A DNA stretch of 64,000 nucleotides. It comes from Octopus vulgaris (taxonomy: Eukaryota). Positions 1 to 54,813 of this stretch are shown here, piece by piece; positions within the stretch are counted from its first letter, which is position 1, and each line of letters starts with the position of its first letter. The position numbers and the translations under genes are program-made. The notes beneath the pieces are model-generated. The model did not search any database. It was not told the DNA's origin and saw nothing but the letters and a program-made list of their open reading frames with translations. The DNA lies in NCBI GenBank assembly GCA_951406725.2, contig OX597814.1, positions 110,546,001-110,610,000 on the forward strand. The letters are read 5' to 3'.

Positions 1-322
1 ACTCTAAAATATTAGAGCAGTATTATATATATATCATCATCATCATCTGTTCTCCAAGCTGGTATGGGTTGGATGGATTAACTGAGGTCTGCAGAGCCTT
101 GTGGCTGCACCAGGTCTGATCTGGTAATGTTTCTACAGCTGGATGTCCCCTGAGAGTGTAGTGGGTGCTTTTTATGTGCCTCCGGCACATTTTCTAGGAT
201 GTTTGTTGTGATGACCAGTCAGAAGGTGATCATTGGTTTCACACCTATAGTTGAAAACACTTGCTGAAGAACCATGCAGTGGGACCAAACCAGGAACCAT
301 ATGGTGAGGAAGCAAGCTTCTT

Positions 323-2350
323 TATTTCATTAAATTTGCCACAAGGGCAGCACACAGAGAGAAGCTTGAGGGCTAGACAGAGACATTAATGGGATGAATG
401 ATGATGATATAAGGATGATAAGGATAGGAGAAGACGAAAAGCGCCCGCCGACTTTCGCTTCTCTAACACATTGTTCTTTTTTTCTTTTTTTTTTTAAAAC
501 AATGAGGCAATAAACCTCTTACACAGTTCAAAATTAAAAATAAAACACAAACGAGGTAATAATCCTCTCACTTTTTACATTTTTAGTCTCTTTTTGAGGT
601 AATACACCTCTTCAATTTTTCCGCCCGGCCAGGCTCCTCGCTTCATCGAAGCACCTGGTCCGTTCCGAACTTAAAGGTTTCAACATAATTCTGAAGGAGT
701 CCTTCGGGAAGGAGTTCGTTATCCTGCACAGATCGTTCTCCCATATGACCTCTGCAGCCACCTGCGAAGGCCACTCAGGGTCCTCCGTGTAGGACAGAAG
801 CCCCTCCCACCGGCACTTCCTCTCAATTTTTTTGATTTCATTTTGCAAGGTTCCTCCCTTGTGGAAGAGGACCAAAAATTCCTCCTCCAGCAGCACACCC
901 GCCAAAGGAGAATTGGGACACGCTGGCAGCGTGTCACAACCCGCCGGCAATGTCCCGTTTTTCTTTTTTCTTTTCTTTTTCCCTTGAGCTACAGGAGGGT
1001 GGTGTTCCCTTGCTGTGTCCAGCAGGTCCTCCTTTTCTCCCGCAGCTCTCGGGTTCCTCGGTGGGCAGCCATTGTTGCCCACCTTTCGCTTTCGTTTTTT
1101 CGAGGAGGTAGAAACCTCCTCGACATCCTCCTCCTTCTCTCCCTCCATTGAGGAAGCAGGGAGTGGTTCCTCTGTTAACTGCTGCAGGATCTTATTTTGG
1201 TCCTTGGGGCAGTTTTTCTTGATGTGGCTGGTCCCCAGGCACAGGTGACACTTGGCGAGGCGTCCCTCAAGCATCACCGGATACCTAGACCCGGCCATCC
1301 TCAAAAAATCTGGGAAAACCAGACTTTCGGCTGATTGGGTGCATAGGGTCAACACAGCTTTTGACCCCTCCCAATCAGCCACAGGCAAAATTTTTACGTT
1401 GAGCAGCTTGGTACTGCTGTCACCCAGACCCCGGCGGATAGAGTTCTCTATCCACTCATGCTCAACTCTGGGTAGCAAGCCGCAGACCCAAGCTCTTGTT
1501 AACTTCTTTCCACAATAACTGGGAAGAAACATTATTTCCTTCCCCTCGAGGGGCCGGCTTGCAAATTCGCAAGCTTTTTTGGGGGAGTCAAATAGCAACC
1601 AGACCATTGCAAATTTGACTCCCCGTGAAATAAATTTAATAGCTGGCATGTATTCTGCCAGCTCTTTCAAAATTGTGGCTTTCGGGAAGACGGTTATGGT
1701 ATCGAGTGACTTTGAATAAGTCCTCAACACCACCGTCTTCCTTTCGAGCTCTTTTAGCCATGATTTGGGAGGTGTTAATTCCCACACTAATATTTCCTTT
1801 GCCATTTTTTTTTAAAATAAAAAGTTCAAATACAGTTCGACAATACGTTTTCAAATAAAGGAAGATACATAAAAAAAGACAGAAGACACAACAGAAGGGA
1901 AGAAAAAATAAAATAACAGTTCAAATAAAGTTCTTTTTTTTTAAATAAATGATAGCTGTGAAAAGAGAGTTCAAATCCAGGCAAAGAAATAAATTTTCGG
2001 CTGAAAGGTACTCCTGGCCAATCCTTTTAATCCACGTGGGCACAAAAATTTTCAAATACAATTTCTCACAATTATGTGAGACAACACACACGTCTCCACT
2101 GCAAGGCAGACAAAAAGCTCCGAATCCAGTAAGGACTCCCTGCCTGTTCAAAAAAATAAAACCAACAGGCAACAAATCCTACTGGACTCACAAAGCAAAA
2201 AGTCTTACCTTACAGTAGAGCGTTTTTCAGTTCAACTTTTGCCAGCTGCATACCAGCGTGACGACTTCAACAGGTACGTGAAGAACACTGTTTTTGTTCT
2301 TTTTTCTTTTTAGGATGGAGCTCAAAGCTACACGTCTTCACAGTTCAGCC
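323..2350 (-). mobile_element. ORF1-only (HAL1-like, non-autonomous) non-LTR retroelement, Tx1/L1-type ORF1
   Basis: Perfect 15-bp TSD GGAAGCAAGCTTCTT at 308-322 and 2351-2365. Single long ORF 612-1805, ~545-nt 5' UTR and ~290-nt 3' UTR ending ATGAAATAAA on -. No room for, and no motifs of, endonuclease or RT. Confidence 0.85.
612..1805 (-). CDS. Gag-like/ORF1 nucleic-acid-binding protein with one CX2CX4HX4C zinc knuckle
   Basis: Intact 397-aa ORF. Motif EGRLAKCHLCLGTSHIKKNCP resembles Tx1-clade ORF1/ZCCHC3-type knuckles. Acidic stretch and basic NLS-like tracts (KKRKRK, KKKRKKK) follow. Confidence 0.85.
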   Translation of the reverse strand: MAKEILVWELTPPKSWLKELERKTVVLRTYSKSLDTITVFPKATILKELAEYMPAIKFISRGVKFAMVWLLFDSPKKACEFASRPLEGKEIMFLPSYCGKKLTRAWVCGLLPRVEHEWIENSIRRGLGDSSTKLLNVKILPVADWEGSKAVLTLCTQSAESLVFPDFLRMAGSRYPVMLEGRLAKCHLCLGTSHIKKNCPKDQNKILQQLTEEPLPASSMEGEKEEDVEEVSTSSKKRKRKVGNNGCPPRNPRAAGEKEDLLDTAREHHPPVAQGKKKRKKKNGTLPAGCDTLPACPNSPLAGVLLEEEFLVLFHKGGTLQNEIKKIERKCRWEGLLSYTEDPEWPSQVAAEVIWENDLCRITNSFPKDSFRIMLKPLSSERTRCFDEARSLAGRKN

Positions 2351-3334
2351 GGAAGCAAGCTTCTTACCACACAGCTATGCTTATACACATGTTTGCATAT
2401 GTATGTATATATATATATATATATATATACACACTCACATACACATATCATCATCCTCATCACTTAGCATTTGTTGTCCAAGCTAGCATGGTTGGACAGT
2501 TTGACCAGGGCCGATAAGCTGAGGGGTTGCACCAGACTCCAGTCTGATTTGGCATGGTTTCTATGACTGGGTGCCCTTCCTAATGCCAACCACTCCGAGA
2601 TATATGTACGTGTGTGTGTGTGTGTAATATATATACAAACACACACACGTACATATATACAATACATACATTTGTATCACCTGTCTTGAGCAGACTGTTG
2701 GATACTGTTATACACCACTGGTCACAATGCAGTTCCAATTCTTTCTTGATTGTAACCTTCTTTTCCATCTTGGCCCAAATCATTTTCCCTTCATCATGAA
2801 GGCCTCCTGGCTTACCTTTTCTGATCTCTTGGAAACAACTCAGCAATTGCATATATCCACTTGTTGATCAACCTTGTGACATGTTCAGCACAGTAAAACT
2901 TGTGTGTATATATCCTCATCTTACCACCCTCCTCTGGCCCCTGTGCCAGTGGCACGTAAAAAGCACCCACTACAGTGGTTGGCGTTAGGAAGGGCATCCA
3001 GCTGTAGAAACACTGCCAGATCAGACTGGAGCCTGGTACAGCCTCCTGGCTTCCCAGACTCCGGTTGAACCATCCAACCCATGCTAGTATGGAAAACGGA
3101 CGTTAAATGATGATGATGATGATTATCATCATCATCATTTAACATCCATTTTCCATGCTGGATATGTTTGATAGTTTGACTCCTGTCATGGTAAGCTCAG
3201 GAACCACGTAGGGCTCCATTCTCTGTTTGGTATGGTTTCCATGGCTGGTTGCCCTTCTTAATGCCAACTACTTTTTACAGAGTGTACTGGGTGCTTTTTA
3301 TGTGGCACCAGGATTGGTATAAGTTCTGGTGTGG

Positions 3335-7219: not shown

Positions 7220-8640
7220 TATCATCATCATCATAATTGTTTAACGTTCGCTTTTCATGCTGGCATGGGTTGGACAGTTTGACTGAGGACTGGTAAGCCA
7301 GAGGATGGATGAGGCCCCAATCTGATCTGGCAATGTTTCTACAGCTGGATGCCCTTCCTAATGCCAACCACTCCGTGAGTGTAGTGGGTAATTTTTACGT
7401 CCCACCAGCACAGGGGCCAGAGGAAGTTGGCAATGGCCACAATTGGTTGGTGCTTTTTACATGCCACTGGCATGGAAGCCAGTCAAGGCGGTGCTGGCAT
7501 CGGCCACGTTCAGATGGTGCTTTTTACATGCCACTGGCACAGGTATCACAACTACAATTTCCATTTGATTTTCATTTTGATGTTGATGTACTTGACTCAA
7601 TAGGTCTCCTCAAACACAGCAGGTCACCCTATGATCCAAGGTACTTTTGAATAGGCTGGTGCTGCTTATGCAAAACTGGTGTAGAATACAGCCGTGAATT
7701 CACTTTATTTGCCAGGTCTTCGCAGTCACAGCATATCTCCAGAGCTCTTGGACTTTCAGCATTGCCTCTGTGAGGGAGGCCAAACATTCGAAGGTCATGC
7801 TTCACTACCTCATCCCATGTCTTCCTGGGTCTACCTCTACCCCGGATTCCTTCAACTGTTTGGGAGTAGCACTTCTTCACACAGCTCTCCTCATCCATCT
7901 GCAGTACATGACCATACCAGCGCAAACGTCTCTCTCTTGCATGCCACATCTGATACTTCTTATGTCCAACAGACCTGAGGGTGTGTGTGATGAGTTTGCA
8001 TTCCTACTTACTAGAACTTTGGTCTTTGCTACATTGACTCTTAGGCCTTTTGTTTCTAAACCTAGCTTCCACACCCAAAATTTCTTTTCTAGTTCCAGTA
8101 GTGATTCTGCTATCAGGGCCACGTCATCAGCATAGAGGGGCTCCCAGGGGCAACCTGTCTTGAATTCCTCTGTTATTGCCTGGAGGACTATGATGAATAA
8201 AAGGTGACTGAGGGCTGATTCTTGGTGGACCCCTACTTCTACCCGGAATTCTTCACTATACTCATTGCCAATCCTAAACTTACTAACGGCCTCTCTGTAC
8301 AGCCCTTATTAACCATCGCCCACATTTTGCATCGCCCACCAGATAAGGGATTGGGGGGACCCTGTCAAAGGCTTTCTGCAAGTCCACAAAAGCTAAGTAT
8401 AGGGGTTTATCTTTAGCTAGGTATTTCTCTTGCAGTTGTCAAACCAGGAATATTGCATCAGTGGTGCTTCTGCCTAGCACAAAACTGAACTGCATCTCAT
8501 CTAAGCAGACTCTCTCCCTGATGAGATGGGCTATGACCCTCTCCGTCATCTTCATCACCTGATCCAGTAATTTGATACCCCTGTAGTTATTTCCATTTAG
8601 AGCATCACATTTACCTTTGTAGCAGTTGACTGTTGTGCTG
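7220..8640 (-). mobile_element. RTE-clade LINE, 5'-truncated, internally deleted, with 3' UTR and (ATG)n tail
   Basis: Fragments NCYKGK..NNYRGIKLLDQVMK, LYADD, ERRLRWYGHV and RGRPRKTW match the 20618 ORF. A deletion junction near 7975 removes the PHD-containing segment. Confidence 0.9.
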
Positions 8641-9117
8641 CTATGCCAGCTGTTAGTTTGAATAAGGTATGACCTGGTAGGCTGTATCATGTTTTAGGTG
8701 TCTTTGTAGTCATGAACCAACATAGACAATCCTCTTAGCTTCCCCACTTTGACCCAATTGGTCCTCTTGAACTACAATTGAATAGAGTGGAGCAACGTAA
8801 AGTGACATGTTTTACTCAAGGATACAAAGTGTGGCACAATTCAGGAGTCAAACACATAGCCTTGTAGAAACTGAATTTCTCTTCCCGGCTGAAATTTGAA
8901 ACCGAATCTAAAAATTCTCTCCTGCCATTCCACCTATTGTTCTGTCAATAAAGTAACCATGATTAATGTGTTTCTCTCTTGACCTGTGAACCGTGAGTAA
9001 TGGTTGACCTACATTGACCCACCTCTTGTTCTCTACAGTATGCACATCCATATGTGTATATTGTTAGAAATACAATCATTTGGAGAGACAACTGGCAGGC
9101 TGCCAGTTCAAAATACC

Positions 9118-9351
9118 TATTTCTTTACTACCCACAAGGGGCTAAACACAGAGAGGACAACCAAGGACAGACAAATGGATTAAATCGATTATATCGACCC
9201 CAGTGCGTAACTGGCACTTCTTTAATCAACCCCGAAAGAATGAAAGGCAAAGTTGACCTTGGTGGAATTTGAACTCAGAACATAGCGGTAGATGAAATAC
9301 CAGTAAGCATTTCGCCCGGTGTGCTAATGTTTCTGCCAGCTCGCTGCTTTA
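9118..9351 (-). mobile_element. tRNA-derived SINE (OK-like family, Deu/Nin-like central domain)
   Basis: Homologous to 42905-43136. Flanked by near-TSD GCCAGTTCAAAATACC / GCCAGCTCAAATACC. Confidence 0.8.
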
Positions 9352-9835
9352 GCCAGCTCAAATACCGTCTTGACAAAACATCATAGAGGGACAGCCATGG
9401 ATTTCACCAACAATACAGTTGTCCTATCCACCCCGCTCTTACTTTCTCACTCACTCACTTTCGTTTTGACAACACCACTTGATCTATTTAGTTACGGCTG
9501 CTATAGCAACAGGGAATAAGTAAGTGCAAACGCTATCTACCCATTTACAAGAAACTATAACTCTCATTACCTCGTATGCTATCTGACTGTTTTTATACAT
9601 GGATGCCTGTCATGGTTCAGCTTTAATTATATGTAATGGAGAAATAAATATGTTATTTACAACTTCAGCCATTGCCTTTCTTTCATGGAATCAACATCAT
9701 CATCTTCGCCTTCCGACATATGCATTATCTGTTACAGCCTTACTGCTGTGAACGTAACACTCTAAGCAGCAAACCACAAACCTTCTGCTATATAACCATA
9801 ATCCACTCATCTGATATACAAATAGAGTGTGTGTT

Positions 9836-19460: not shown

Positions 19461-20594
19461 CAGGAAAGACAAAATTGAACTCCACATAATTTTCTTTAAT
19501 GGTCTGTTGATTTTACTTCTAAAATATTACAACACCATAGAATTTCAAAATAGCCAAACCCCCCTCAAGTCATAACCCACTGTTAGAAAAACATGAAAAA
19601 AACTTGGATAGTATATTTTTAGATGCCCCTATAAAGATAGGATGGTCCAAACTGGGGCATCTTTGTTTAACCCCCTTGTCTGTTCAAAAGAGATGATATA
19701 GGACTGAGATACTTGGTGCATTGCTGTACTCAAGAAGACCCATCCATCACAGCAGAATTGTTAATGCCCCCTCCCAGCTGAAGGGGCTTTTGCATTGCAA
19801 GAACCTTGTGTCAGTGCTATGTAAAATGCACCCGTGCCAGGCCACATGAGAAGTACCCAACATGCTCTGTAAAGTGGTTGGTGTTAGGAAAGGCATATAG
19901 CCATAGAAACCAAGCCTGATCAGACAGGAACCTGGTGTGACTTCCAAGCTTGCCAACTCCATGTCAAACCGTCCATGCCAGCATGGAAAATGGACATTAA
20001 ATGATGATGTCAGAAATGGTGTAAGGGAATTGTTGATGCTATTTCTAGCAGGTCATGCTTTTTCATTTGATATTTATCTCTTGATTTTGTATATTTTTCA
20101 ATCGCTTCTAGGTATGTTATTAAAGAAGGTTTATTTCATAGGCCAATGTATGTTGCATTTTATAAAAATATATATAATTAGTAAAATATATTGTATTTTA
20201 TTGGCTAATCTCAAGTTATTGTTTTGTCTGAAATGTACTGACTGTTAATAAAATTATTTTCTTATTTTAACCAGTTGTTTGTTTTGTTTTTAATTTTGTT
20301 TTATAATTTTCATGCGACTTGTTGCAAGTGAATAGCATTTTGAAAAATTATTGCATTCTCAACATCCATATTTTTTCAATGTGCTATTGTTTTGAGATTT
20401 ACTTTTAATCCTTTTGACACCAACTCATCCGAGACTACTCCTGGTTCCATGATACAAATTCACTGTTTTCAAGTGGTCTAAATTAAAATCTTTCATGAAA
20501 ATTTTATGTTAATTTATGATCCAAACACCAGATTAACAATGACAATGTGATTTCCCTAAATTCTTTATTATTTAAAAAATTAATTGATATAAAG

Positions 20595-22917
20595 AGGTTT
20601 GGAGATGCCACTATGAAATGTTGCTGAATAAAGAAAATGAATGGGATAAAGAGAGTCTGCCAAATGTCAACCCAACAGAGGGACCAGCCATCCAAGTTGA
20701 CAGTTCCAAGGTAGTTAAGGCAATTAGAAGCATGAAGACAGGGAAAGCCCCAGGCCCATCTGGAATTACTGCAGGGATGCTCAAAATATCTGGCAGTGTC
20801 AGCTATAACCTAGCCACCCGTATAGTTAACCAGGTGATACACGAAGGAGTCATACCCAATGACTGGTGTAGCAGCATACTAGTCAACTGCTACAAAGGTA
20901 AAGGAGAAGCCCTAGATACAAATAATTACAGAGGTATCAAGCTGTTGGATCAGGTAATGGAGGTTACAGAGAGTGTCATAGCCCAACTGATTAGGGAGAG
21001 AGTCAACTTGGACGAGATGCAGTTTGGTTTCATGCCAGGGAAAAGCACCACTGATGCCATATTTCTGGTGAGACAGCTGCAGGAGAAATACCTAGCCAAA
21101 GATAAGCACCTGTACCTGGCTTTCGTTGACATGGAGAAAGCCTTTGACAGGGTCCCCCGATCCCTTATCTGGTGGTCAATGAGGAAACTAGGGATAGATG
21201 AATGGCTGGTGAGGGCTGTGCAAGCAATGTACAGGGATGCCGTAAGTAAGGTAAGAGTTAGCAACATGTACACAGAAGAATTCAAAGTAGAGGTTGGGGT
21301 CCACCAGGGTTCAGTACTCAGCCCCCTCCTATTTATCATAGTCCTCCAGGCAATTACGGAGGAATTCAAGACAGGTTGCCCTTGGGAGCTCCTATATGCT
21401 GACGACCTTGCTATAATTGCTGAGTCACTATCAGAACTGGAGGAGAAGTTCCAGGTGTGGAAGGAGGGTCTAGAATCGAGGGGCCTTAGAGTCAACCTAG
21501 CTAAAACCAAAGTACTAATAAGTAGGAAGGTAGAAAATCCACAAATGTCTTCAGGAAGATGGCCCTGCTCGATCTGTAGAAAAGGTGTAGGTAGAAACTC
21601 TATAAGATGTACCCAGTGTAAGCTATGGACACATAAGAGGTGCAGCAATGTCAAAGGAAGGCTAACTGGGAAGATAGTTTTTGTATGTGGCAGATGTTCG
21701 GGAGCATTAACCTCTGAAAATCTGCAGAAAACAACTTCCGTCACTTTCCAGGGGGAAAAACTAGAAGTATTTGATAGCTTCCGTTATCTTGGTGACCAAG
21801 TCAGTAGTGGGGGTGGGTGTGATGAAAGTGTAACGGCTAGAGTAAGAATAGCCTGGGCAAAGTTTAGGGAGCTCTTACCTCTGCTGGTGACTAAAGGCCT
21901 CTCGCTCAGAGTAAAAGGCAGACTATGATGCATGTGTACGAACAGCCATGCTACATGGCAGTGAAACATGGGCCGTGACTGCTGAGGACATGTGTAAGCT
22001 TGCGAGAAATGAAGCCAGTATGCTCCGATGGATGTGTAATGTCAGTGTGCATGCTCAACAGAACGTTAGTACCCTGAGAGTAATGTAGGACTTAAGGAGC
22101 ATCAGTTGTGGTGTGCAAGAGAGATAATTGCGCTGGTATGGTCATGTGGCGAGAATGGATGAAGATAGGTGTGTGAAAAAGTGCCAATCCCTAGCAGTGG
22201 AGGGAACCCGTGGAAGAGGTAGACCCAGGAAAACTTGGGCTGAGGTGGTGAAGCATGACCTTCGAACTTTAGGTCTCACTGAGGAAATGACCTGCGACCG
22301 AGACCTTTGGAAATATGCTGTGCATGAAAAGACCAGGCAGGACAAGTGAGTCCAGCCCACTTATGCATGCCTTTCCTCCCTTAGACACACAAAGACCTGT
22401 TGAGGCAAGCGAAGTCAATATCGAACCTCATCCGACGACAGGCACCTATGCCTACCCCACTTTGCTTGCAAAGACCTGTTGGGGCAAGTGAAATCGAAAT
22501 TGAACCAATCTTATGACTGGCACCTGGCAGATGCCAGGACCCCTGGACTGGAGATACGTAAAAAGCACTATCCGAATCGTGGCCAATGCCAGCGCCGCCT
22601 CGACTGGCTTCCGTGTCAGTGGCACATAAAAAGCACCATCCGAAGCCAGTGCCGCCTCGACTGGCTTCCGTGCAGGTGGCACGTAAAATGCACCAATCCG
22701 ACCGTGGCCGATGCCAGCCTCGCCTGGCTCCAGTGCAGGTGGCACGTAAAAAGCACCCACTACATTCACGGAGTGGTTGGTGTTAGGAAGGGAATCCAGC
22801 TGTAGAAACATTGCCAGATAAGACCGGAGCCTGGTGCAGCCTTCTGGCTTCCCAGATCCCCGGTCGAACCGTCCAACCCATGCTAGCATGGAGAACGGAC
22901 GTTAAACGATGATGATA
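20595..22917 (+). mobile_element. RTE-clade LINE, 5'-truncated, with RT, PHD finger, repeat-containing 3' UTR and (GAT)n tail
   Basis: RT motifs NYRGIKLL, QFGF, AFVDMEKAFDRV, GVHQGSVLSPLLF, LYADD, FRYLG; C-terminal RGRGRPRKTW typical of RTE. Confidence 0.95.
20618..22349 (+). pseudogene. Disrupted RTE reverse transcriptase ORF
   Basis: 436 aa open to 21928, where GACTATGA vs GACTGTATGA in the copy at ~28208 shows a 2-bp deletion. Further stop near 22087. N-terminal endonuclease absent. Confidence 0.9.
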
Positions 22918-41300: not shown

Positions 41301-42904
41301 CTCTACTGTAGCCTTCGCTCAGTCAAAGGCAGTCCTGTGAGCTACATAACAACCTCACCAGTGCTTGTGCCACAAAAATGGTACTGTAAAGTTGATGTTA
41401 GGAAGGGCATCCAGCCATAAAAACCATGCCAAAACAGACGTTGGAACAAGATGCATAATTCACTGGATTCCATAAAATCGTCCAACCCAAGCTGGCATGG
41501 AAAATGGACATTAAATGATGATGGTGATCATCATCATCATCATAAAAGATTTAAAATGTGTATATCAGAAACATGTTACATGACAGTGAGAATTGAGTTA
41601 TAAAGGTGAAAGACTTTATAGCATTGGTTGGATAGGAATCGGTTGAGAATTTGAGTGTAGTGGAACATTAAAAGCACCATCCGAGCATGATTGTTGCCAG
41701 GGCTGTTGACTGGCTCCTGTGCTGGTGGCACGTAAAAAGCACCTTTCGAGTGTGATTGTTGCTAGTGTCACCTTACTGGCATGTGAAAAACAACATTCGA
41801 ACGTGGTCATTGCCATTGCTGCCAGACTGGCTCCCGTGCAGGTGGCACATAAAAAACACCTTTTGAGCATGGTCGATGCCAGTACCGCCTGACTGGCCCT
41901 CATGCCAGTGGCACATAAAAAGCGCCCACTACACTCTTGGAGTGGTTGGCATTAGGAAGGGCATTCAGCTGTAGAAACTTTGCCAGATCAGATTGGAGCC
42001 TAGTGCAGCCTCCTGGCTTGCCAGTCCTCAGTCAAACCATCCAACCCATGCCAGCATGGAAAGCAGATGTTAAACAATGATGATGATGATGGCCATGGAA
42101 GGAGTTAGTTTTAAGAAACATTCGAAAATGCTCGGGAAAAGTGACTAATGAAGATGGATGATGTTTGTTTGGTGGTGAAAAATGTCATGGATATCAACCA
42201 AAGCATTTTTTCATTTCTTAGATTTGATATATGTGAAGTAGGTTCAGTGAAGGGTAAACATCAAGGAAGAGATAGCAGTACAAAGTATGTAATTCACACC
42301 AATATATAAACAACCGTATGATTATTATATTTTATGTCATAGGATACACAGGGGATCTGTCTGGCTAAGGTTTAATATAAAAATACAAATGTGAACTATT
42401 TAAAAGAACTCCACTATCCTGCCACTTTTAATAATCAGCTCTTGTACAAAGAAACTTGGTTTTCTCATCAGGGCCAACAAATAGTTGTTGATATTTCATT
42501 AATTTGTCTTACAGTGGAATATTGTACTCATATGTGGGATCACAACACTATCTCTACTCACAAACTTTGATTATACAACATGAAAGCTAATTGGCTTGAT
42601 GTAAATTTATTCACTGAAATGCATAAGTGAGGCCCACTTATTGATCCCCAATGTCTATGAATTCTTTTCCTATTCATCTTCATCATCATTTAATGTCTGT
42701 CTTTCATGACTTTCTGGCATGGGCTGGATGGTTTAACAGGACTGCATCAAACCCTAGAGTCAGCTCTAGTATGGTTTCTGTATGTAACTGGATACCTTTT
42801 CTAATGCCTACCACTTTAGAGTATAGCAGGTACTTTTCCCTTGGCACCAGCAATAATGAGTTTGTTAACTTGCAAGACAAAAGATGGAGGTATTGTACGG
42901 AGAG

Positions 42905-43136
42905 AAGGTGGCGAGCTGGCAGAACCGTTAGCTCGCCGGGCAAAATGCCTAGCAGTATTTTGTCTGCCGCTATGTTCTGAGTTCAAATTCCGCCGAGGTT
43001 GACTTTGCCTTTCATCCTTTCAGGGTCGATAAATAAAGTACCAGTTACGCACTGGGGTCAATGTAATCGACTTAATCCGTTTGTCTGTCCTTGTTTGTCC
43101 TCTCTATGTTTAGCCCCTTGTGGGTAATAAAGAAAC
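42905..43136 (+). mobile_element. Full-length tRNA-derived SINE (OK-like)
   Basis: Head GGTGGCGAGCTGGCAGAA..GAGTTCAAATTCC, central GACTTTGCCTTTCATCCTTTC.GGGTCGATAAA, tail GCCCCTTGTGGGTAATAAAG. TSD-like AGGTATTGTA on both sides. Confidence 0.85.
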
Positions 43137-43552
43137 AGGTATTGTAGAGAGAGCTGGCTTTAAATTTGGTGTTGAGCGGTTGAAGTATGATAAAAGGACA
43201 GGAACAGTTCAAACTAGATAAGTTTTAAAAAACTCTCCAAATTCACCAACTTCCACATCTCTGCTGTCCCCTATCTGTATATATACTAAAGGCTGCTTCA
43301 TTAAGGGACTTCCTTCTCTCCCAAAACATTAGTCTTCAAGTTTTCAAAGCTATTTCACCCATACCTTCACTTCATTAGCTCTGAACATTGTAAGATAAAG
43401 ATCACATCCTATTTGATTAACTTCTGAAACATCGAACATTGTTAGTAAGCTATCATTGTATTATGCCAGATCTGTGTAAGCAACAGTCATAATCATCTGC
43501 ACCAGTGTTCATACATACCACTAATAACACATACCAGTGTTAATACATACTA

Positions 43553-44175
43553 GTATATTCTTTACTCTAGGCACAAGGCCTGAAATTTTTGGGGAAGGTG
43601 CCAGTCGATTAGATCGACTCCAGTATGCAACTGGTACTTAATTTATTGACCCCGAAAGGATGAAAGGCAAAGTCAACCTCGGCAGAATTTGAACTCAGAA
43701 TGTATAGACAGACGAAATACCTATTTCTTTACTACCCACAAGGGGCTAAACACAGAGGGGACAAACAAGGACAGACAAACGGATTAAGTCGATTATATCG
43801 ACCCCAGTGCGTAACTGGTACTTAATTTATTGACCTTGAAAGGATGAAAAGCAAAGTGGACCTCGGCGGAATTTGAACTCAGAACATAAAGACGGACGAA
43901 ATACCGCTAAGCATCTCTCCCGCCGTGCTAACGTTTCTGCCAGCTCACTGCCTTTTATATACTAGTATATTGCTGGGTGAAATGCTTAGCGGTATTTCAT
44001 CTGTCTTTACGTTGAGTTCAAATTCCGCCGAAGTCGACTTTGCCTTTCATCCTTTCAAGGTTGATAAATTAAGTACCAGTTACGCACTGGGGTGATGTAA
44101 TCAACTTAATCCCTTTGTCTGTTCTTGTTTGTCCCCTCTATGTTTAATCACCCACTGTGGGCAATAAAGAAATAA
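43553..44175. mobile_element. Cluster of OK-like SINEs in head-to-head (inverted) arrangement
   Basis: Two minus-strand copies (43553-43955) then a plus-strand copy (43970-44175). Confidence 0.8.
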
Positions 44176-44964
44176 ATATTTACTAGTATTACCATCACAT
44201 CATTTAAACCCTGCACTCCCTACAGAGCATAGGCCATCAGTGACCCTTCTCCACTCGGGCTTGTCTTTCTTCCAGATCTTGTTCATTTTGAATTGTCATT
44301 GTTTGCTTGTGTAACTTTGATTTTTTTTCTAGGTAGGGGTGTTGGCCTTATAAAAAACCATTTTTACCTGTAGGCAGAGGTGATCCATTTTAGTCTGGTC
44401 TTTACCTTTCACCTGTCTATCAGGATCTTGCACTCCACTGCTATAAACCCCATAGTGATTGGGGTAAACAACCCACCACCCTGCAACAAGGACTGGACCT
44501 TACAGTGGCAGTATTATGATGTACCAGCATTACTACATTCTAGTATTAACATGTACCAGTATTAATATGTGCTAGTGTTTATATATGGGAACGTGCATAG
44601 CTTAGTGGTTAGGGTGTTGGACTCGTTATCATAAGATTGTGGTTTCAATTCCTGGACCAGGCAGTGTATTGTGTTTTTGAGCAAAAATGTCATTTCATGT
44701 TACTCCAATCCATAGAGCAACATGAAATGAAAAAATGAGTAATCCTGAGATGGACTGGCATCCTGTCCAGTGGGAATATACACACCACGGAAATCAGGAA
44801 ATTGGCCTTGTAAGTCTGTATGACTTGGGAAGGATCTTATTATTTATAGTGTTTATATATGCCAGTCTTCATGTTGATTGATGTGAAATTTAAACTATAT
44901 TTTTTCTGTCTTGTTTGTTTCTTTCTTTTGTCTGTCGTCATTTTAATGATTTCTTACCTTGCAG

Positions 44965-45078
44965 ATGTTCAACTCAATTGATCATACCAAGAAAAATCAA
45001 TTTTTAGAACAAACCAAGGCTGCCAGAGAAGAACGCGCTTTTGAGCGAAGGAGAGACAATGCTGCCATTAAAATTCAA
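44965..45078 (+). CDS. UBE3B: UBE3B-like HECT E3 ligase, coding exon 1 (MFNSIDHTKKNQFLEQTKAAREERAFERRRDNAAIKIQ)
   Basis: Acceptor ttgcag|ATG, donor CAA|gtaaat, phase 0. AREER..ER...AA..IQ matches the UBE3B N-terminus and start of the IQ motif. Confidence 0.93.
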
Positions 45079-45084
45079 GTAAAT

Positions 45085-45125
45085 ATCTATATATCTGTAT
45101 ATCTATCTGTCTGTCTGTCTGTATT

Positions 45126-48911: not shown

Positions 48912-49743
48912 GTAATTATTCCACTAAATATTGGGATTTCTCTTTAACCAATTATATTAAACAATTTCCTTTGATTTGGTCAGGAAAATTAGTCTTGCCC
49001 CAGGTCAGCCCTCAATGATCTCAGGTATAATGTATCCAGAGAAAGATTATTCAATGTGTCTGGACCTGTCAATGGCCCTCTTACAACTCTCTTAATGTTT
49101 AGTTTTCCTTCTTTTTGTGTTTTACACTCTGTACTCTACATGTACTTCTTAGCTTTCATTGATGTCTTTCTCTACTTGATTTGTATATCTGCTTTCCATT
49201 CTTTCTTTTAACCTTTTCTAATAAATTGCAGTGCACCTGAGCACTGTATACAATTAGTCCATCATCATCATCATCATTATTATTATTATTATTATTATGC
49301 CTGACTGGCCCTCGTGCTGAGGGGCACGTAAAAAGCACCCACTACACTCTCGGAGTGGTTGGCGTTAGGAAGGGCATCCAGCTGTAGAAACTTTGCCAGA
49401 TCAGATTGGAGCCTGGAGCAGCCATCTGGTTTGCCAGTCCTCAGTCAAATCGTCCAACCCATGCTAGCATGGAAAGCAGACGTTAAACGATGATGATGAT
49501 GATGATTCTTATTATTAAAGGTGGTGAGCTGGCAGAATCATCAGCATGCTGGGCTAAATACTTGGCAGCATTTTGTCCATTTTTATGTTCCAAGTTCAAA
49601 TTCTGCTGACATTGACTTTGCCTTTCATCCTTTTGGGGTTGATAAATTAAGTACCAATTGAACACTGGGGTCAATGTAATCAATTTACCTGCTCCCCTGA
49701 AATTGCTGGCCTTGTGCCAAAATTATTATTATTATTATTATTA

Positions 49744-50334: not shown

Positions 50335-50967
50335 GTAACAAGCTGGCAAAATCATTAGTGTGCCTGATGAAATGCTTAGTGACATTTTTTCCAGTTCTTC
50401 ACGTTCTGAGTTCAAATGCTGCTGAAGTCAGCTTGGTCTTTTATCCTATCAGGGTTGATAAAATAAGTACCAGTTGAGCATTGGAGTTAATGTAATTGAC
50501 TAACCTTCTCCCCCCAAATTTTTGGCCTTGTGCCTGTAGTAAAAAGTATTATCATTATTATTTTAAGGTAGTAGGATGTGATTTGAGAGAGATTTGGCTG
50601 TTATCTCTTGCATGTTGATCAACTCTGTATAAATTCCATTGATGGCTCAGGACAGTTTCTGTGTAAGATTCTGATGGTGTTATAGAATCCTCCTGGACCA
50701 TAACTAGAGGTACAATCTAATAATTTTAATTAAACTAATGGAATTACTCTGTTCCAAATTGTTGAACAAGGACTCTTGCCTAATGTGTTGTGAAGTGGAA
50801 CCAAGCCCTGGATTGTGCAGTTGTAACAGAAACTTCTTAACCTCACATCCATGCCTACTTCAGTTTAAATCAATTGATTTTAATTCGAACCTTTTTTTTT
50901 TGCTTATTTTTCTCTTGTTGATATTCAAAAATATCTTTCATTTTTTTCTGTTGTTGTTGTTTTGCAG

Positions 50968-53076: not shown

Positions 53077-54813
53077 GTAACTATTTATTTCCTGTTATTT
53101 TGACATTTTCTTGCATCTTATCTCCTAAATCTAATGACATTTTTTCATTGTGTGTCACAAAACTACAGTTGATATTTTATGTGAAAATAACAGAAAGAGT
53201 AATGTTAGAGGCATTTATGCACAAATATATATATTTATTAACACCACCCAGTTGAATGATACTGCCCAGGTGTCGAAACCATAATGATATCTGCTAGGCA
53301 GCTGATGATAGTATATATTTGGCGTGCTTGTTGTCTGTGAATCTTTTATACCTTGTGTTCTTGTTCAAAGTTGTCCTCATTCTCAGAGGACATTTATTTA
53401 GATATTTAGAATTTGAATATTATGTCATCAATGTAAGTTTACAAATAATAAAAAAAAATAATATGACTAGAGATTAGTGGTGAGTCAGCATACATATTGA
53501 TACATCTAAAGATGTGAGTGAGGATCAATGATATTTCTTGTTTATTGACAATAACAGATCAAGTATGTTACTTGGAACTGAAGATTAAAAGAAAAAATGA
53601 TACCATAAATGTGTAGTAGATGCTTGGATGATGTTTTGTATTAGTATTCTTAATATCAGTTTCAAATTTTGGCACAAGGCCAGCAAATTTGGAGAAGGGA
53701 TTTGTTGATTACATCGACCCCAGTGTTCAACTGGTACTTATTTTATCAACCCTAAAAGGATGAAAGGTAAAGTTGACCTTGGTGGAATTTGAACTCATAA
53801 AGAGCCAAAGGGATGCCACTAAGAATTTAGTCCAACATGCTAACAACTCTGCCAGCTCACATAATAATAATAATAATGGTTTCAAATTTTGCCACAAGGG
53901 CAGCAATTTTGGGGGAGGGGATGTGTCAATTAATTCAACACCCAGTGTTCAACTGGTACTTATTTTATCAACCCCAAAAGGATGAAAGGTAAAGTCGACC
54001 TTGGTGGAATTTGAACTCAGAACTTAAAAAATGGTTAAACTGACACTAAGCATTTTGTCCAGCATGCTAATGATTCTGCCAGCTCACCACCATATGGTAT
54101 TGTTAATATCACCATCATTTCTCCATTACCTGAACCAAATCTCCCTCAAATCATACTCTACCTTCTTAAAACAAAAAGACACATTGGATGATGTAATCCT
54201 AGATATGTCAAGCCTAAATAAGATGATGGGATGGTATTGTCTTAGTGAATAAACGCTTCCTATATTGCCTTGTCTTGCTTTGGGCCCTCAACCTTCATAC
54301 AGTCTTAGGAATGCCATTGTGATGTATGGTGTGTCTTGGATATTTTTAGATCTGGTAAAACCCATTCCTCTCCTGGGATTTCTTTGAGAAAGAGAGAAAG
54401 ATAGACAGAAAGAATTTGAAGAATGAAAAAATCAATTCCAGTGATAGATTGGTATTTTGCTTATTGTCCTTCAAAAGATAAAAGGCAAAGTTAACCTTGG
54501 AAGGATTTGAACTCATGAAGAGAGAGCCAGAATGATTATTGCAAAGGAATCTATCCGATGCTCTACTGATTCTACCATTTAGCTGCCTTACTTTCTATAT
54601 TAGTTCTTTATTGGTGAACTTCATTGATGACCATTCAGAATGTAGCTCCTTATTGTATTGAGTCTTTGTTATGCTTCTTGTAATGTTTAATTCTGCCATG
54701 TGAATGTGTTAGACCCTCCACTACTCTTATATGCATACATTAAAGAAATATTTATTAAACATGCAGGGAAAATGCAATTATGTTTATTATGAATATGTAA
54801 TTCTAAATATTAA

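Follow-up and report, generated by a model that had tools for sequence, protein, structure and literature searches.

A many-copy, probably ORF1-only LINE derivative with a likely preference for one base of a SINE head in the Octopus vulgaris genome

LINE derivatives that keep ORF1 and have no reverse transcriptase (RT) are known from a few clades. The mammalian HAL1 is a non-autonomous LINE derivative coding for ORF1p only (PMC5753468) and, in the quoted list of bipartite elements with ORF1, HeT-A (from Jockey), HAL1 (from L1) and Ag-Sponge (from CR1) all consist of 5′ and 3′ LINE parts with ORF1 and without RT (PMC5786205). TRE5-A.2 from Dictyostelium is also devoid of ORF2 and is moved in trans by its full-length partner to Pol III-type loci (PMC5633606). 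In the Tx1 clade, Tx1 in Tx1D, Tx1-Mar with SINEU, Keno, Kibi and Koshi occupy a set place in another repeat, as do passengers, and a target preference is assigned if over 20% of flanks lie in one sequence type (passages from PMC4494074). The octopus element described here resembles HAL1 in coding for ORF1p only, shares the composition of the listed bipartite elements, lacks ORF2 like TRE5-A.2 and, like the Tx1 families, sits in another repeat.

The element is located at the beginning of the window, i.e. the whole 64-kb stretch of DNA that was analysed, and is oriented on the minus strand. Its features and those of the surrounding SINE are the following:

323..2350, minus strand: whole element, 2028 bp, with edges set by an exact 15-bp duplication
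2351..2365: target-site duplication (TSD), 5′ side, identical to 308-322
308..322: TSD, 3′ side, providing the last two A of AATAAA
1806..2350, minus strand: 5′ untranslated region, 545 nt, with a presumed internal promoter
612..1805, minus strand: ORF1, 397 aa, stop-free
1512..1775, minus strand: predicted RRM 1, residues about 11-98, pLDDT 77-92 by block
1257..1517, minus strand: predicted RRM 2, residues about 97-183, from the structure model
1209..1250, minus strand: single CCHC zinc knuckle, C186-C199, directly after the RRMs
615..914, minus strand: C-terminal ~100 residues, perhaps folded into a small domain of their own
323..611, minus strand: 3′ untranslated region, 289 nt, without poly(A)
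504..610, minus strand: three short GAGG-N7-CCTC hairpin repeats, starts 610, 567 and 518
428..463, minus strand: predicted stem-loop in the 3′ region, with high summed contig depth
323..362, minus strand: 3′ tail resembling, by alignment, those of two local SINE types
2366..2377, minus strand: upstream remnant of the host SINE, with an A-box-like motif judged by eye
245..307, minus strand: downstream part of the host SINE, by alignment to other copies

Positions 308-322 and 2351-2365 were identical at 15/15 bases and the adjoining bases differed on both sides, so that the repeat ended at 15 bp. The frame read from 1805 to 612 on the minus strand without a stop, whereas the longest open frame across 1000 shuffles of the element had 238 codons as compared with 397 aa. 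A total of 545 nt preceded the start and only 289 nt separated the stop from the TSD, leaving no ORF2; on the element strand, the longest stop-free stretch across the three frames of the 3′ region was the low-complexity end of one frame, and no ORF2-like text was recognized by eye. The perfect TSD, the uninterrupted ORF, both UTRs and the lack of ORF2 reported in the earlier note from the sequence alone were thus confirmed for this copy, and its dependence on a borrowed RT was supported. The AATAAA end described there was present at 326-321; however, its last two bases belonged to the TSD and no poly(A) tail followed. No terminal inverted repeats were detected at the element ends and no LTRs among the repeats listed. 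LTR-element, DNA-transposon and SINE identities were rejected because of this anatomy, SINEs being defined as non-coding, under 700 bp long and headed by a small-RNA-derived sequence (PMC3531059) as opposed to 2028 bp with a 397-aa ORF. The retroelement origin was supported.

The non-coding parts gave few structural signals. GAGG-N7-CCTC motifs occurred only three times in the 64-kb window, all in the 3′ region of the element, and neither their folding (z -1.69) nor that of the stem-loop at 428..463 (z -1.44) differed significantly from shuffles. The 3′ region overall and the first 141 nt of the 5′ region also folded no better than shuffles, and no RNA family reached the gathering score over region 1-3000. 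A splice-donor-like motif was noticed in the 5′ region (2206-2214, minus strand), with no joint supporting splicing near 2210 among 15 of the 102 joints, and in run X8, guessed to be RNA, almost no cover was observed from 2046 to 2325. Neither a second copy of the element nor a partner-LINE end was found in the window.

The claim that this is the only transposable-element ORF in the window without stops was overstated, as an RT frame at 20588-21928 (plus strand) is open for 446 codons, although stops flank it on either side and it is only a fragment. Its RT domain is followed by a cysteine-rich, PHD-like stretch, and the frame is presumably RTE-type. A second RT fragment was found at 7877-8302 (minus strand). 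A short exon-like frame at 44950-45090 (plus strand) is presumably similar to the N-terminal part of a ubiquitin ligase of the UBE3B/UBE3C type; a Pfam search with this frame gave no support for such a ligase.

A structure model of ORF1, built on 12 sequences, had pLDDT mostly above 70 by block for residues 11-200 and below 50 after about residue 212. The best fold match for RRM 1 was the La RRM (Z 8.3, rmsd 2.8, 81 aligned) and for RRM 2 it was ARS2 (Z 8.2, rmsd 3.1, 80 aligned), with tandem-RRM proteins on top of the Foldseek list. Pfam and PDB sequence searches with the query gave no match; zf-CCHC was matched by 8/12 aligned members at E up to 1 and not by the query itself, and ZCCHC3-type matches were found in 0/12 members. 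The C-terminal domain reached a pLDDT of 74 in the best single-sequence model (42-59 in the other four) and had no clear fold match, ACT-like domains being the best (Z 6.9, rmsd 2.5, 72 aligned). A profile from the C-termini of four relatives did not find the C-terminus of the query, and a viral fold search returned only RRM-like or unnamed proteins on top. The CCHC-knuckle ORF of the earlier note and the RRM-like plus CCHC structure expected there were both recovered, since ORF1 models as a LINE type I ORF1 with two RRMs followed by one CCHC knuckle at C186-C199 and is predicted to bind RNA. HAL1 proper was rejected as an identity, since no Transposase_22 was found for the query, nor among the 14 Pfam families listed for 12 members, and the two RRMs and knuckle of the model are accompanied by no long N-terminal helix.

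Type I ORF1s are found in the I, Jockey, R1, L2 and CR1 subgroups, the quoted forms from the Jockey lineage and L2/CR1 having three knuckles, and the human L1 ORF1 is of type II with a coiled coil, an RRM and a CTD (PMC4120745). RRM/CCHC ORF1s of non-mammalian animals were described as consistent with Tx1, and L1/Tx1 elements carry them (PMC5203782). Type I ORF1 is shared by several LINE clades, and the clade is not readable from ORF1 alone.

The closest protein relative was the O. sinensis uncharacterized protein XP_029652367, annotated as a gene with three protein records and 65% identical over 70% of the query. At E up to 0.001, 33 proteins were recovered from the full library, mostly with 23-35% identity, and all 13 with a named organism among the 21/33 looked up (eight had none) were octopod, from O. 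sinensis, O. vulgaris, O. bimaculoides and Argonauta. Identity was about 25% for most relatives, which were dispersed over octopod gene models. Atlas neighbours were CCHC and ZCCHC3-type RNA-binding clusters (0.90-0.93), followed by the PRE_C2HC family (0.85), and the prokaryote, viral and metagenome collections contained no relative by protein or by tail pattern. Several distant relatives (P0004, P0005, P0013, P0019 and P0030) lay on contigs of 1.7-2.2 kb, one relative cluster had four members on contigs of 1.85-1.93 kb, and P0009 and P0022 were on 1.4 kb and 16.8 kb contigs, respectively. The contigs of 1.7-2.2 kb may represent other ~2-kb ORF1-only units or mere fragments. The O. sinensis gene model P0016, one of the 13 octopod relatives, matched only residues 4-48 of the query, this 45-residue piece being 58-60% identical to the ORF1 N-terminus, and otherwise had an integrase-type Pfam hit; it is likely a chimeric annotation over a nested insertion.

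Parts of the element were contained in 20/24 public runs listed, with a maximal share of its 31-mers of 0.38. Copies were collected at 80% likeness from four runs under three organism labels, i.e. X1, X2, X9 and X8, the last of which was only guessed to be RNA. The collection comprised 2761 matching contigs in X1, 4775 in X2, 2136 in X9 and 100 in X8 with graded divergence, and 30/30 bins of the element were covered in X1, X2 and X9 and 29/30 in X8. A rough single-copy level was taken as the median depth of 8 long divergent contigs listed per run. The thinnest inner bin had 10-33 times and the best ORF bin 660-1040 times this single-contig level; summed contig depth does not equal copy number and was therefore read only as many copies. 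The element belongs to a many-copy family, as the earlier note had supposed.

Eight joints connected interior positions 339, 367, 1465, 1545, 1633, 2215, 2239 and 2268 with 2351-2358, as expected for 5′ truncation. Such joints made up 3/15 entries in one table (15 listed of 102) and 7/12 in another; each corresponds to one contig with a short side of 21-22 letters where given, often repeat-derived, and the joint at 1633 is ambiguous and may be a neighbouring intact SINE. Copies truncated at the 5′ end appear to lie at the same SINE flank, and the 15-bp TSD with the eight interior-to-flank joints, each weak alone, are signs of target-primed insertion. A further joint from 920 to 2307, corresponding to a 1386-nt internal deletion, was observed in a single X1 contig and a single X2 contig, whose organism labels differ, and is possibly a shorter non-coding derivative.

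Removal of the insert restored a continuous SINE head which aligned to 10 other copies in the window. An A-box-like motif in 2366..2377 and a B-box-like motif at 291-281 of the host SINE were assigned by eye; ARAGORN detected no tRNA in the window and Rfam none in one sister SINE copy. A total of 30 contigs in X1, 13 in X2 and 20 in X9 were clipped exactly at 308, whereas the chance expectation for clips at one base is about 0.5 per 1000 copies (about one). The loose ends at 308 agreed among themselves only at 0.56-0.69 and continued as SINE; they differed from the locus's own flank and therefore came from other loci with the same base. Loose ends behind 341-358 came from other families sharing only the last 20-36 nt of the element, which are candidates for the partner LINE or sister SINEs, and some of the contigs clipped at 308 may therefore belong to such families. 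No pile of clips was present at the element's own edge near 323 among the 24 of 1334 entries given for X1, X2 and X9. The strong excess over chance indicates that insertion likely prefers one fixed base inside the SINE head.

The 3′ tail of the element was compared with nine SINE tails from the window. For 6/9 of these, the last 80 nt of the element scored above all 94 other element windows, with 0-12/1000 shuffles as good and 18 consecutive bases shared in the best case, whereas 3/9 were not above background. The match concerned the last ~30 nt, and SINE type A was the best match. Shared tails are the usual sign of elements using the same partner enzyme (PMC4824008, PMC3747384). The site preference in the SINE and the tail common to local SINEs were both missed by the earlier reading.

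Type A tails were located at 49520-49739 (plus strand), 50341-50559 (plus strand) and 53651-54095 (minus strand), two of them as a head-to-tail pair, and 2/4 type A copies had ATT repeats on both sides. SINE-B copies at 9100-9380 (minus strand), 42880-43165 (plus strand) and 43690-43950 (minus strand), the last nested in the head of another SINE, were accompanied by imperfect duplications of ~15-16 bp with the same starting 6-mer. This common 6-mer in 3/4 copies suggests that SINE-B is a motif-targeted SINE family, and other target-biased passengers therefore appear to exist.

The maximal 31-mer share of 0.38 corresponded to about 3% divergence from the family majority, with the caveat that the species of the runs may differ from that of the window. 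In the ORF, 8/30 variants were synonymous in comparison with 27% expected under neutrality (40 sites listed of 541). Among T>C or A>G changes, 9/19 were of CpG type versus a base rate of 23% (p = 0.018); the changes came from 30 near-fixed sites chosen by hand, two of which (557 and 1192) were below the 80% rule. The changes look like neutral decay after insertion and do not bear on selection while the lineage was replicating. Probably, this copy is an older, neutrally drifting insertion in which the frame survived. The divergence and the neutral look of the changes give no support to the views that the family is young and that it keeps its own RNA chaperone under selection.

Altogether, the reading favoured, with some reserve, is that a partner LINE with sequence specificity, probably of Tx1 type, moves a many-copy ORF1-only family in trans to a fixed base in a SINE. 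Transcription would start from the 5′ region, ORF1p would coat the element RNA, and the partner enzyme would recognise the common 3′ tail instead of poly(A). The target nick, at a site presumed to resemble the L1-type endonuclease motif, would give a T-rich primer that could anneal to the A-rich end of the RNA. Reverse transcription, often truncated at the 5′ end, would be accompanied by a second cut 15 bp away from the nick. Landing between the promoter-like boxes of the SINE may offer a low-cost site available once in about 6 kb. In O. vulgaris, 13 L1-Tx1 families have been active recently, and their 421 insertions add up to 2.29 Mb (about 5.4 kb on average); its other active LINEs include RTE, Dong-R4, CR1, Hero and R2, with the most recently active insertions for Dong-R4 (PMC13282606). 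Tx1 is the best candidate for the partner LINE and Dong-R4 is a rival on tail evidence.

The family as a whole is fairly likely to be ORF1-only, although the earlier proposal of an ORF1-only moving family stood only in part: depth continued across the stop-to-3′UTR bins, while no contig spanning the whole element was detected in the runs examined. The competing explanation, judged unlikely, is that the element is a rare internal-deletion product of a full-length target-specific LINE, most members of which carry ORF2, this copy having lost it in reverse transcription. It draws on the lack of a spanning record and on a depth dip at 506-715, where ORF2 would sit and where X1 and X2 fall to 5-6% of the value in the best ORF bin. 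Relative to single contigs, depth in this dip was nevertheless about 45-, 65- and 50-fold in three runs; it was equally low in the ORF linker of all three runs and in the 5′ bins of X1 and X9. An ORF2-less family is favoured by a near-identical X8 contig that spans 452-776 with 3 differences and 11 gap letters, although it may derive from this very locus, and by X2 contigs in which 525 is connected with 690 and with 722, the intervening letters not being known. A 5-6 kb 5′-truncating element should be much deeper at the 3′ end, whereas the 3′ region was about as deep as the ORF core (depth at 426 relative to 1445 of 1.68, 1.01 and 1.08 in three runs). The only loose end at 440-720 among the 24 entries listed of 1334 was a 14-nt variant of the local hairpin repeat. 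That full-size active L1-Tx1 families exist in O. vulgaris (PMC13282606) and that other internal deletions such as 920 to 2307 occur among the joints fits the deletion product. No partner element with RT was found, which weighs against the favoured reading; searches for longer fused ORF1-ORF2 proteins also gave none, which is weak evidence.

Two further explanations concern the origin. An ORF1-only family that stems from, or is carried by, a LINE outside Tx1 (Dong-R4, CR1/L2 or I-group), possibly following a tail swap, is improbable to a greater degree than the deletion product. The best tail match to SINE type A speaks for it, as do the ATT repeats on both sides of 2/4 such copies, which resemble the presumed TAA-repeat target of Dong; against it, the nick site presumably resembles the L1-type endonuclease motif. 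Among the LINEs of O. vulgaris, the most recently active insertions belong to Dong-R4 (PMC13282606), and the occurrence of type I ORF1 in I, Jockey, R1, L2 and CR1 (PMC4120745) together with PRE_C2HC neighbours at 0.85 agrees with such an origin. On the other side, the RRM/CCHC ORF1s of non-mammalian animals are consistent with Tx1 (PMC5203782), and this ORF1 has one knuckle instead of the three quoted for Jockey-lineage and L2/CR1 forms (PMC4120745). Least probable by far is that the element is a processed retrocopy whose parent was a host or domesticated gene for an RNA-binding protein. The O. sinensis relative annotated as a gene with three protein records, the ZCCHC3-like Atlas neighbours and the related contigs in X8, guessed to be RNA, would suit a retrocopy; thousands of contigs with graded divergence, the lack of poly(A), the recurrent target site, the SINE-like tail and the scattering of relatives, most about 25% identical, among octopod gene models all oppose it.

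The same-6-mer duplications of SINE-B and the relatives on 1.7-2.2 kb contigs are hints of a wider radiation. It may be supposed, quite tentatively, that octopods contain a radiation of ORF1-only half-LINEs and tail-sharing SINEs depending on sequence-specific LINEs, each with its own SINE motif. Such a radiation would be a nested parasite system with SINE heads as safe landing sites, and would provide a first case of a non-autonomous Tx1 derivative that codes for a protein. A many-copy family with a fixed target, a tail common to SINEs instead of poly(A) and hundreds of insertions to compare would allow a test of ORF1 selection in the replicating lineage and of whether ORF1 helps to choose the target, as in TRE5-A, and would show the competition between coding and non-coding passengers for the same enzyme. 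It would also extend the known LINE targets by SINE heads, and mark several gene models annotated as 'uncharacterized protein' in octopus as retroelement ORF1s.

HAL1 is characterized by poly(A) and dispersed insertion, unlike the octopus element with no poly(A), a tail common to SINEs and a probably fixed target. The ORF1 types differ as well, the human L1 ORF1 being of type II (PMC4120745) and this one of type I. ORF1-only LINE derivatives and transposon targeting by Tx1 are already known and it is their combination with a SINE site in a mollusc that was not met: no ORF1-only or SINE-targeting cephalopod element was described in the literature searched, most subscription journals and Repbase Reports lying outside it, and the quoted list of bipartite elements with ORF1 names no Tx1-derived, molluscan or SINE-targeting example (PMC5786205). 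Repbase, Dfam or the O. vulgaris repeat library, which has 80 L1-Tx1 consensus families (PMC13282606), may already contain the element. The Tx1-clade families with a set place encode RT, in contrast to the element here, and the passages on them name DNA or LTR transposons, snRNA genes and microsatellites as targets, but no SINE head (PMC4494074). By analogy, TRE5-A.2 can be regarded as the closest functional analogue, with the difference that TRE5-A inserts ~50 bp upstream of tRNA genes through an ORF1p-TFIIIB contact (PMC5633606), whereas the octopus element lies inside the SINE head.
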